Origin: Sandaracinus amylolyticus
GTDB taxonomy: Bacteria; Myxococcota_A; Polyangia; Polyangiales; Sandaracinaceae
DNA length: 64,000 nt
Direction: 5' to 3'
Assembly: GCF_000737325.1 (NCBI RefSeq)
Contig: NZ_CP011125.1
Span: forward strand, 9,931,945 to 9,995,944
The notes beneath the pieces are model-generated. The model was given only the letters and a program-made list of their open reading frames with translations. It was not told where the DNA came from and ran no database searches. Position numbers and translations under genes: made by a program. This document shows, in pieces, positions 54,852-61,898 of this stretch (positions are counted from its first letter, which is position 1; every line of letters starts with the position of its first letter).

Positions 54852-57800
54852 ATGCGCCCGCGCCGCAGTCGACGTGTTGCTCCGCTTCTCTTCATCGCCG
54901 CCCTCACCGCTTCCTTCATCGCGACCGACGCGCACGCGACCGTCGTGCAGGTCGACGGGACGATCGTCCCCGTCGGCAACGCGCTGCAGGACGCGCTGAA
55001 CACCTACGAAGGCGTCGCGCCTCCGGCCGCGAACGCCATCCACGCGGTGATCGACGCGGCGCAGCTGCCCGAGATCTTCCTGCCGAGCACGAGCAACGCG
55101 GTCGTCTTCGTCGACATCGCCGAGGGCGCAGGGTTCGAGAACAGCTTCGGCTACTACAACGTCGGCGACGATCCGCGCGTCACGACCAACCTGCGGCCGA
55201 TCATGGGCTGCGGCGTGCAGGCCTCGAACCACGCGAACGAGGTCCCGAACTACGTCCGCTCCGCCGAAGCGGGCACGAGCGTCAGCGTCGACTTCAACGC
55301 GGAGCGCACCGCGGGCCGCTACCGCGGCGGCTACATCGCGTTCTACCTGATCACGCCCGAGGACCCGGCGAACCCGGGCTCGCAGGGCTCGCCCAACTGC
55401 GGCGACTTCGGGTCCGGGAGCCAGAGCTTCTACGGTCGCGCCTACTACACGCAGCGCGACTTCAACAACGACGGCGACTTCGTCCATCACCTCGTCTACC
55501 AGTCGCGCGTCACCGCGAACCGCTTCTACTTCGGGTTCGAAGACCTCTTCCGCGGCGGCGACAACGACTACGAGGACATGGCCATGCAGGTCACGGGGCT
55601 CACCCCGCCCTGCTCGCCCGGCGTCGAGATCTGCAACGGGCGCGACGACGACTGTGACGGGCTCGTCGACGCCGCCGACTCCTCGCTCTCCGACGACGAC
55701 GTCGCGTGCACCTGCGACAACGTCTCGATGACGTGCGAAGGCGGCGCGCAGCGCGGCGTGTGCCGCACCGGCGCGACGGCGTGCGTCGCGGGCGCGCTGA
55801 TCTGTCGCTCGACGGTCGGACCGAGCGCCGAGCAGTGCAACAACCTCGACGACAACTGCGACGGCACCGTCGACAACGGCGCGGCGGGCACCGGCGTCGC
55901 GTGCGACGGAACCGACGCCGACCTCTGCAACGAGGGCGTGTTCGCGTGCACCTCGGGCGCGCTCACGTGCACCGACGCGACCGGCGCGAACGCCGAGACC
56001 TGCAACGGCGCGGACGACGACTGCGACACCCGCACCGACGAGAACGTGCCCGGCGTGGGCGCCGCGTGCGACGGCGCGGACGGCGATCTCTGCAACGAGG
56101 GCGTGACCACCTGCGCGGGCGCGTCGGGCCTGCGCTGCAGCGACGCGACGGGCACGAACGCCGAGCTCTGCAACGGCGCCGACGACGACTGCGACGGCGC
56201 CGTCGACGACGGGCCGACCGACGTCGGCGTCGCGTGCAGCACCGGCGTCGGACTGTGCCGCAGCAACGGCGCGACGATCTGCAGCATGGGCGCGCCGGTC
56301 TGCAACGCGACGCCGATCCCGCCGCGCGCCGAGCGCTGCAACGCGCTCGACGACGACTGCGACGGCGCGACCGACGAGACGTTCCGCCTCGGCGAGGCGT
56401 GCGTCGCGCCCGGTGTGTGCGGGCCCGGCGTGCTCGAGTGCGCGGGCGACACCGGCACGCGCTGCTCGAGCGCGCCCGGCGGATCGGGCGACGGCTCGCG
56501 CGCCGAGACGTGCAACGGCCTCGACGACGACTGCGACACCCGCGTCGACGAGGGCCTGACCGATCTCGGCTCGTGCGGTGAGAGCACCGGCGAGTGCGAG
56601 CCCGGCCGCCTGCGCTGCCTCGCGGCCGCGCCCACCTGCGTCGGCGGCATCGGCCCGACGCCGGAGATCTGCGACGGCCGCGACAACGACTGCAACGGCG
56701 ACAACGACGACATGCCGACCGACGTCGGCGCGAGCTGCGGCGACGACACCGGCGAGTGCACCGCGGGCACCCAGGCGTGCGTCGGCGGCATGCTGCGCTG
56801 CCAGGGCGCGGTCGGTCCCGGCACCGAGCGCTGCAACTCGCTCGACGACGACTGCGACGCGATCACCGACGAAGATCCGAGCGACGTCGGCGCGACGTGC
56901 GGCACGACCGACGTCGGCGTGTGCGATCTCGGCAGCACGATCTGCGTCGCGGGCGGGCTCGTCTGCGCGGGCGCGACCGAGCCCAACGTCGAGGTCTGCA
57001 ACGGCGACGACGACGACTGCGACGGCGACACCGACGAGGACGCGATCGACGTCGGCCGCGTGTGCGGCTCGGCGATGGGCACGTGCACGCCGGGCATCAC
57101 GGTGTGCGTCGCGGGCGCGCCGATCTGTCAGGGCGCGACCACGGGCACGCCCGAGATCTGCAACGGCATCGACGACGACTGCGACACCGTCATCGACGAC
57201 TCGCCGAGCGACGAAGGCGGCGTGTGCGGGATGGGCGAGGGCGTCTGCGAGGAGGGCGAGCTCCGCTGCATCGCGGGATCGCTCCAGTGCGTGGGCGGCG
57301 TGCTCCCCGGCACCGAGGTGTGCAACGGCCTCGACGACGACTGCAACGGCAGCATCGACGAGGGCGACCTCTGCGAGGGCGGCGTGTGCGTCGGCGGGCG
57401 CTGCAGCGTGCCCTGCCAGATGACGGAGTTCGGCGAGCGCTGCCCGAGCGGCGAGATCTGCGTCGAGCACTACTGCGTGCCCGACGAGTGCGAAGGCGTC
57501 ACGTGCGAGCCGGGCCCCGACGGAACGAAGAACGTGTGCGTCGAGGGCGGCTGCGTGCCCGCGTGCGACACCGTGACGTGCGACGCGCCGAACGTCTGCC
57601 GCCGCACCGACGGCGCGTGCGTCGGCAACAACTGCATCTTCCTGCCGTACCTCTGCACCGACGCGCAGATCTGCGCGGCCGGCGAGTGCGTCGACGATCC
57701 GTGCGCGGGCGTGAGCTGCGACGCGGGTCAGTTCTGTCGCGGCGGCGCGTGCGTGGGCAGCTGCGCGGGCGTGCGCTGCGGCGTCGGCGAGGTGTGTCGC

Positions 57801-61898: not shown

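Follow-up and report, generated by a model that had tools for sequence, protein, structure and literature searches.

The region analysed here is a 64,000-nucleotide stretch of the Sandaracinus amylolyticus genome (contig NZ_CP011125.1), referred to below as the window, with positions counted from its first letter. The gene of interest is an uninterrupted open reading frame (ORF) on its plus strand, 54852-61898, coding for 2348 amino acids (aa), and in this product DUF4114, PF11617 and BNR_2 all pass the Pfam gathering cut-offs. In this report, we focus on an apparent composite of two sorting signals located in the middle of this gene. The features of the ORF are the following:

54852..54938, plus strand: N-terminal Sec signal peptide (aa 1-29), MRPRRSRRVAPLLFIAALTASFIATDAHA then TVVQVDGT, judged by eye from the sequence, with an inferred cleavage site.
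54939..55631, plus strand: head domain (aa 30-260) including DUF4114 (aa 159-248), a beta-sandwich likened to the LecB/PA-IIL-type Ca-dependent lectins.
55632..57386, plus strand: first array (aa 261-845), 11 CxxxDDDCDG (PF11617) modules with a period of about 54-56 aa.
57387..58010, plus strand: second cysteine-rich stalk segment (aa 846-1053), repeated C..G..C..G.CV.DPC units.
58086..58205, plus strand: internal MYXO-CTERM-type sorting tag (aa 1079-1118), namely, AAGGGGMC (Cys at 1087), a Gly/Ser-rich spacer, the helix ALAWIALGIVGIVIA and RRRR (1115-1118).
58194..58307, plus strand: embedded lipoprotein-type (signal peptidase II, SPII) signal peptide, with RRRR as n-region, GIALVVALV as h-region and an LGGC lipobox (Cys1152), followed by a conserved EVDPYC.
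58209..58271, plus strand: SANAGTA x3, a 21-bp in-frame tandem repeat in a predicted cytoplasmic loop.
58308..60467, plus strand: stalk of the C-terminal half (aa 1153-1872).
60468..61898, plus strand: eight-bladed Asp-box (BNR_2) beta-propeller (aa 1873-2348) and stop codon.

The G+C content at third codon positions (GC3) of this frame stays between 0.86 and 1.00 from start to stop, with a typical value of about 0.95, while neighbouring regions are in other phases; we therefore regard the ORF as coding over its full length. The minimum of 0.86 coincides with the mid-ORF junction, which is crossed by no stop codon. A 2505-aa antisense ORF was rejected as a high-GC artefact on the basis of codon-position GC. 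A GGAGG sequence at 54844-54848 lies just 5' of the start codon at 54852, and the signal peptide boundary, AxA followed by TV(T/V)QVDGT, is kept in 13 relatives.

The junction occupies aa 1079-1152 and runs AAGGGGMC-SASGAGTGGASG-ALAWIALGIVGIVIA-RRRR-S(SANAGTA)x3-GIALVVALV-LGGC-EVDPYC. Its first part has the tripartite design of MYXO-CTERM, with GGGGMC as the Cys signature, the helix ALAWIALGIVGIVIA and RRRR. The second part follows the lipoprotein SPII design, that is, a basic n-region, an uncharged h-region and a lipobox, and the stretch from RRRR to GIALVVALVLGGC fits the lipobox core pattern (after PROSITE PS51257). From its sequence, the junction thus reads as a MYXO-CTERM-type tag that continues in frame into a lipoprotein signal peptide, the arginine cluster being common to both. 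Neither signal is at its usual place: about 1,230 residues follow RRRR, so that the tag is not at the extreme C-terminus, and the lipobox Cys is residue 1152, far from the start of the polypeptide. Between RRRR and the h-region, ATG, GTG and TTG are all absent in frame.

With regard to the SANAGTA stretch, the 58209-58271 repeat is a perfect 21-bp tandem repeat of 2.9 copies, placed precisely in the loop that separates one sorting signal from the other, with alternating GTGCCA/TGGCAC palindromes and the rare codons AGT and GCT. As RNA, it has a predicted folding energy of -63.3 kcal/mol (z -6.2). The repeat is found in the genome of the window only, all relatives having instead 0-10 residues at that position. 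Candidates for its origin are an insertion of variable copy number, a site of protein binding and an element at which ribosomes pause. An internal promoter was considered here and not adopted: the repeat carries sigma-54-like TGGCAC-N6-TGC motifs, over-represented because it is palindromic, and is followed by no usable start codon. The sole sigma-54 consensus match of the window outside this repeat is a close one, TGGCACCTCGGTTGC, at 50036-50050 on the minus strand, at the start of an MgsA-like gene.

An exact look-up of the 2348-aa product returned no record, and the source genome is absent from the GTDB representatives, in which the best match has 67% identity. An alignment of propeller homologues led to 30 loci from GTDB genomes, 25 of them encoding the propeller. 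These related loci come from metagenome-assembled genomes (MAGs) of Sandaracinaceae, Polyangiales, Kofleriaceae, Haliangiales and unclassified Myxococcota, with 30-67% identity. Wherever the position is covered, namely, in 21 of 21 loci (20 tabulated plus L027), the same in-frame junction is present. Its consensus is (T/A)xGGGGC, a Gly/Ser spacer, 15-20 hydrophobic residues and RRRR, then 18-38 residues up to the lipobox [LVAS][ASGT][GA]C, followed by xV(N/D)(E/P)(Y/F)C. Both cysteines are invariant and the frame is always held, whereas the spacers vary in length (18-35 aa from the first Cys to the arginines, 18-38 aa from the arginines to the second). In 13 loci, complete single ORFs of about 1830-2360 aa extend from the signal peptide and DUF4114 head through to the propeller. 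At the junction position, the curated cut-off of TIGR03901 (20 bits) or TIGR03382 (15.85 bits) is passed in nine out of ten orthologues, and the lipobox core pattern is found in 16 of 20 junctions, that of the window among them. A regular-expression scan for the composite junction, covering in six frames the 562 kb of window and loci, gave matches in this gene family alone. The window gene is an ordinary member of a conserved, uncharacterised Polyangia family, and not the one-off architecture described as unusual in an earlier note on this DNA.

Two candidates were set aside in this survey. The long-read ENA contig L002 was first taken as a junction-less version and rejected, as it proved to be the L004 gene in a frameshifted form that has collapsed or suffered deletions. 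Positions 7300-12150 of L002 and 4540-11540 of L004 share 96-98% DNA identity and represent nearly the same organism. Three deletions within the gene set them apart: one of about 650 bp affects the head, one of about 1080 bp the MopE array, and one of about 580 bp spans the junction. Frameshifts are present in both; the difference may reflect repeat collapse in the long-read assembly or real deletion variants. The second candidate, P0002, was considered as a stand-alone second half, and it begins mid-module without a signal peptide.

To survey the wider distribution of the junction, aa 840-1450 served as the phmmer query against a set of 1.84 billion representative proteins, which gave 2742 matches; the best 150 were classified, and the counts below refer to these best 150 of 2742. 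About 36 further 50%-identity clusters have the same internal junction. In addition, about 65 stand-alone proteins start with a lipoprotein signal, some of them with Asp-box tails (P0199, P0203 and P0272), and about 11 proteins end exactly at the MYXO-CTERM RRRR (for example, P0287 and P0301). Since stand-alone relatives of both halves exist, each half seems equipped to be exported by itself. The make-up of the fused proteins is combinatorial, with DUF4114 or VWA heads, and BNR, FGE-sulfatase-like or IgGFc-binding tails. All named members are from Myxococcota and are annotated as 'MopE-related protein' or 'SUMF1/EgtB/PvdO family'. From these sequences, the chances appear about evenly balanced that Myxococcota have a general 'bipartite sorting junction', in which a MYXO-CTERM tag and a lipoprotein signal would stand back to back around one arginine cluster, with heads and tails shuffled.

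IgGFc_binding genes also adjoin the orthologue on L002 (12315-15699, minus strand), and IgGFc_binding is the tail of the fused-junction protein P0253; these two occurrences hint at a shared functional neighbourhood.

The same survey bears on the most trivial origin of the junction, a sequencing or assembly error that removed a stop codon and so merged two neighbouring genes. The 21-bp tandem repeat and the GC3 dip to 0.86, both exactly at the junction, are features that such an error might leave. Against this, independent assemblies from several families, both short-read and long-read, contain the in-frame junction, and one of the about 36 fused clusters has 21 members from independent assemblies, of which ten are 2207 aa and two 2208 aa long, the rest being shorter or partial. 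Given this spread over clusters and these 12 members of near-identical length, an assembly error, or a recent accidental fusion, can be set aside, and we consider the artefact extremely improbable.

As the mid-ORF tag and lipoprotein signal are conserved in frame, the DUF4114 head and the propeller probably become parts of two separate polypeptides. We favour, with somewhat better than even confidence, the proposal that the ORF encodes a polyprotein precursor, which would be processed by the myxosortase MrtX and by LspA into two lipid-anchored envelope proteins in a 1:1 ratio. In such a scheme, the two hydrophobic segments would enter the membrane as a hairpin of helices; RRRR and the SANAGTA loop would remain in the cytoplasm, while the two large halves would lie on the outer side of the inner membrane. 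Lgt would lipidate Cys1152 and LspA would cleave before it, turning the C-terminal (propeller) half into an N-terminally acylated lipoprotein. In parallel, Cys1087 would be lipidated and the helix removed by MrtX, leaving the N-terminal (lectin) half anchored by a C-terminal lipid; this half could then be displayed at the surface in a type II secretion-dependent manner, as for TraA of Myxococcus xanthus. The outcome would be two lipid-anchored proteins delivered in a strict 1:1 ratio through one translocon.

Several observations weigh against this scheme. The tag of the window scores 14.2 bits with TIGR03901, under the cut-off of 20, over model positions 1-33 of 34. The n-region is unusually long, with 37 aa from the first Arg to the Cys, due to the 21-residue repeat insertion. 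Neither a myxosortase gene nor a second MYXO-CTERM protein is visible in the 64-kb window, with no CPBP protease among the ten neighbour genes scanned and no other MYXO-CTERM-ended ORF in the window. A literature search found no published case of Lgt and LspA acting on a lipobox behind another membrane helix, and everything past the sequence anatomy is inference.

Some of these points would fit a single uncleaved polypeptide whose two-helix hairpin anchors it in the inner membrane, both halves being periplasmic and the cysteine motifs left as relics of an old gene fusion. Its topology is self-consistent, with basic residues between two hydrophobic segments, the window tag is sub-threshold for TIGR03901, and the long repeat insertion could impair signal function. 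However, a plain hairpin would have no need of the cysteines, the glycine-rich motif or the lipobox, which are kept in all 21 loci and in the about 36 clusters despite freely diverging surroundings. Because both cysteine motifs are conserved and stand-alone halves exist, processing is favoured over a mere hairpin anchor, which we regard as unlikely. Another possibility is that one signal only is functional, LspA, for instance, freeing the C-terminal lipoprotein while the N-terminal half stays on its helix, or the reverse. Lipoprotein processing is universal, whereas MYXO-CTERM processing requires MrtX, not seen in the 64-kb window, and the tag of the window is weaker than those of its orthologues. 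Yet the orthologues pass the MYXO-CTERM cut-offs and Cys1087 is invariant, so that a single working signal seems decidedly unlikely. Processing of both signals is thus retained as the preferred reading.

As for the N-terminal half, PF13448 (DUF4114) matches aa 159-248 with 38.1 bits in the whole protein and 41.9 bits in the head alone, compared with a gathering cut-off of 27, which bears out the DUF4114-like N-terminal domain announced in the earlier note. The domain is present in ten out of ten tested orthologues (35-46 bits). The predicted structure of the head (aa 30-260) has a predicted local distance difference test score (pLDDT) of 83.5, and in an alignment its conserved GFEDLFRGGDNDYED loop falls on the Ca/sugar loop region of LecB. 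A PDB-sequence profile search with the head gave spurious armadillo-repeat matches only, and a search for head homologues returned only 145-455-aa fragments from short contigs, uninformative on fused versus split forms. In publications, DUF4114 is treated as a Ca-dependent sugar-binding module (PMC9109919, PMC11934332). It is required in PilY1.1 of M. xanthus for exopolysaccharide-dependent motility (PMC9109919), and in the Acanthamoeba mannose-binding protein AcMBP-1, where it precedes cysteine-rich repeats and a membrane helix, it has been demonstrated to bind mannose (PMC11934332). The carbohydrate-binding role proposed earlier for the protein is plausible, and the two halves would probably act together, the DUF4114 half as a Ca-dependent glycan-binding adhesin and the propeller half as a multivalent partner.

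The stalk modules on both sides of the junction correspond to PF11617 (Cu-binding_MopE, or putative metal-binding motif), with 181.4 bits for a gathering cut-off of 27. With the strict pattern CxxxD(D/N/E)(D/N)C(D/N), 21 modules are counted, 11 in aa 261-840 and 10 in aa 1200-1800, plus one degenerate copy, fewer than the approximately 30 previously announced. Their attribution to the Myxococcus cysteine-rich repeat is likewise not upheld, as a NCBIfam/TIGRFAM scan of the full protein returned zero families at E<=0.01, TIGR02232 for this repeat included. In the C-terminal half, an acidic Gly/Asp linker is followed by 3-4 modules of about 82 aa, which combine the MopE motif with a CGxCG...GCEYxC unit, then by 6-7 MopE modules of 54-60 aa, for a total of 10 strict modules and one degenerate. 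The segment of aa 846-1053 has no match in Pfam and NCBIfam scans and is kept at 65% identity in L002/L004. A cysteine/aspartate-rich stalk had thus been correctly recognised, but not one continuous stalk leading to a sialidase-like head, as the mid-ORF tag and lipoprotein signal divide the ORF. PF11617 takes its name from MopE of Methylococcus capsulatus; the likeness is the short CxxxDxDCDD-type motif, and the relatives bear the database name 'MopE-related protein'. However, just this motif of about 30 residues is in common, and nothing in the window protein indicates copper binding.

At the C-terminal end, PF13088 (BNR_2) matches with 35.8-40 bits for a gathering cut-off of 31.4. The AlphaFold model of aa 1873-2348 (pLDDT 92, predicted template modelling score 0.93) presents eight strand groups with a period of about 58 residues. 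The blades are near-identical, with a repeated VAWxD strand and then xRSxDxGxSW, and the conserved residues recur blade by blade and look structural. The BNR/Asp-box assignment of the earlier note is therefore right, but not its count of six blades, explained by the fact that just six of the eight carry a canonical Asp-box. Sialidases have six blades and an asymmetric catalytic centre, and the window propeller differs from GH33 sialidases in its eight near-identical blades with repeated VAWxD and SxDxGxSW motifs; sialidases, other BNR/Asp-box propellers and eight-bladed propellers, such as that of the lipoprotein BamB, are the closest systems for comparison. A check for sialidase catalytic residues, at the sequence level, revealed no RIP motif, the nearest site being a PRIA (aa ~1955) not conserved in homologues, and comparison with these homologues revealed no conserved FRIP-type arginine.

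These data bear on the earlier view of a giant surface protein, in which a Ca/disulfide stalk would present a six-bladed sialidase-like head for cleaving or binding, under control of an upstream repeat array. Its domain matches are real, and sialidases are listed by Foldseek with E ~1e-9. They are found at template modelling scores of 0.27-0.43 only, and none of the top structural matches is sialidase-like. With eight near-identical blades besides, a glycan-cleaving role is unsupported, and the view as a whole is largely refuted and very unlikely to be correct. From the structural model, we infer a multivalent binding propeller rather than an enzyme.

Upstream of the gene, the following feature lies in a 630-bp intergenic region:

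54238..54700, no strand assigned: upstream repeat array, five copies of a unit of about 85-88 bp, ending about 150 bp before the start codon.

Three copies are direct, starting at 54238, 54326 and 54414 (88-bp spacing, to 54454), and two are inverted (54525-54594 and 54608-54677), in line with the direct/inverted array described earlier. Long hairpins of 38 nt, with 82-84% complementarity, might form between the arms. Within the window, the array occurs at this single spot only, and it is absent upstream of the orthologues L004, L006 and L007. It corresponds to no Rfam family, with just a sub-threshold plant miRNA model, contains no sigma-70-like site, and has terminator-like sites at chance rate; when metagenomes were scanned with the 19-mer core of the array, 26 single matches turned up, a number that chance could explain. 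With no promoter-like site, no Rfam match and no counterpart upstream of those orthologues, the phase-variable or tightly regulated expression that the array was suggested to confer is unsupported.

Regarding the genomic surroundings, the gene is preceded by a YbjN/CesT-like gene (minus strand), a 75-aa ORF and MgsA, and followed by an aldose-epimerase-like gene and an FAD monooxygenase; no functional link with the gene was seen among the ten neighbours scanned. The 75-aa ORF (53993-54221, plus strand), between the YbjN/CesT-like gene and the array, has no family match and may be coding according to codon-position GC. The FAD-binding monooxygenase (62646-63998, plus strand) is syntenic, being found downstream both in the window and in the closest relative (L001 2503-4182). 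Further upstream, a penicillin-amidase family ORF of 1413 aa (43638-47879, minus strand) has a Pfam match over residues 528-1399 only, the N-terminal stretch of about 500 aa outside this match representing an extension or an over-extended ORF.

In the myxosortase study PMC11980579, MYXO-CTERM proteins are described as exported by Sec and held by their C-terminal helix, then cleaved by MrtX after a presumed Lgt-type lipidation; internal tags, as in MXAN_5598, are called rare and proposed to be processed likewise. Neither of the two myxosortase papers, searched for the relevant terms, mentions a tag fused directly to a lipoprotein signal with a common arginine cluster, or a multi-cluster spread of it, and a broader literature term search on such junctions returned nothing relevant. 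What is known is thus the internal MYXO-CTERM, mentioned once as rare; what appears new is its fusion with a lipoprotein signal and the spread of this fusion over dozens of clusters in which heads and tails are shuffled. Studies of C-terminal sorting tags and of lipoprotein signals normally treat them as belonging to separate genes, and if the proposed processing is true, one ORF could deliver two differently oriented lipid-anchored proteins, acylated C-terminally and N-terminally, respectively, at a fixed 1:1 ratio, the conserved fusion representing an envelope polyprotein for stoichiometric co-delivery. Since these ORFs are annotated as single 'MopE-related' or 'SUMF1 family' proteins, their two mature products would have gone unrecognised. 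The pairing of a DUF4114 lectin head with a partner propeller also points to a glycan-binding adhesin of two components in these social, predatory bacteria. The junction also bears on a question raised in the myxosortase study (PMC11980579), namely, the identity of the enzyme that attaches a lipid to the MYXO-CTERM cysteine, and the ability of Lgt to work on a substrate of inverted topology; as both cysteines would lie at the periplasmic face of one small hairpin, the latter would be a natural substrate for testing Lgt lipidation of MYXO-CTERM.

Among the closest known systems, MXAN_5598 of M. xanthus likewise has a large adhesin-like N-terminal region, a mid-ORF MYXO-CTERM and a downstream envelope protein; the authors see in it the product of fused genes, with processing and surface display of the N-terminal part (PMC11980579). 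It differs, by published description, in that an outer-membrane beta-barrel carrying an OmpA domain, and not a lipoprotein, lies downstream of the tag (PMC11980579). Canonical lipoproteins (Lgt/LspA, SPII) share with the window gene the basic n-region, the h-region and the lipobox Cys, and the stand-alone homologues start with exactly such a signal, whereas here it stands about 1,115 residues into the ORF, behind another membrane helix. As for TraA, it is described with a variable lectin-like head, a cysteine-rich stalk, a MYXO-CTERM cleaved by MrtX and a display dependent on type II secretion, which recalls the N-terminal half and the processing proposed for it. The TraA head is of the PA14 type, not DUF4114. 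Its partner TraB is encoded by an overlapping ORF, so that TraA/TraB are two ORFs where the window gene is one, and, by description, that partner is not a lipoprotein propeller.

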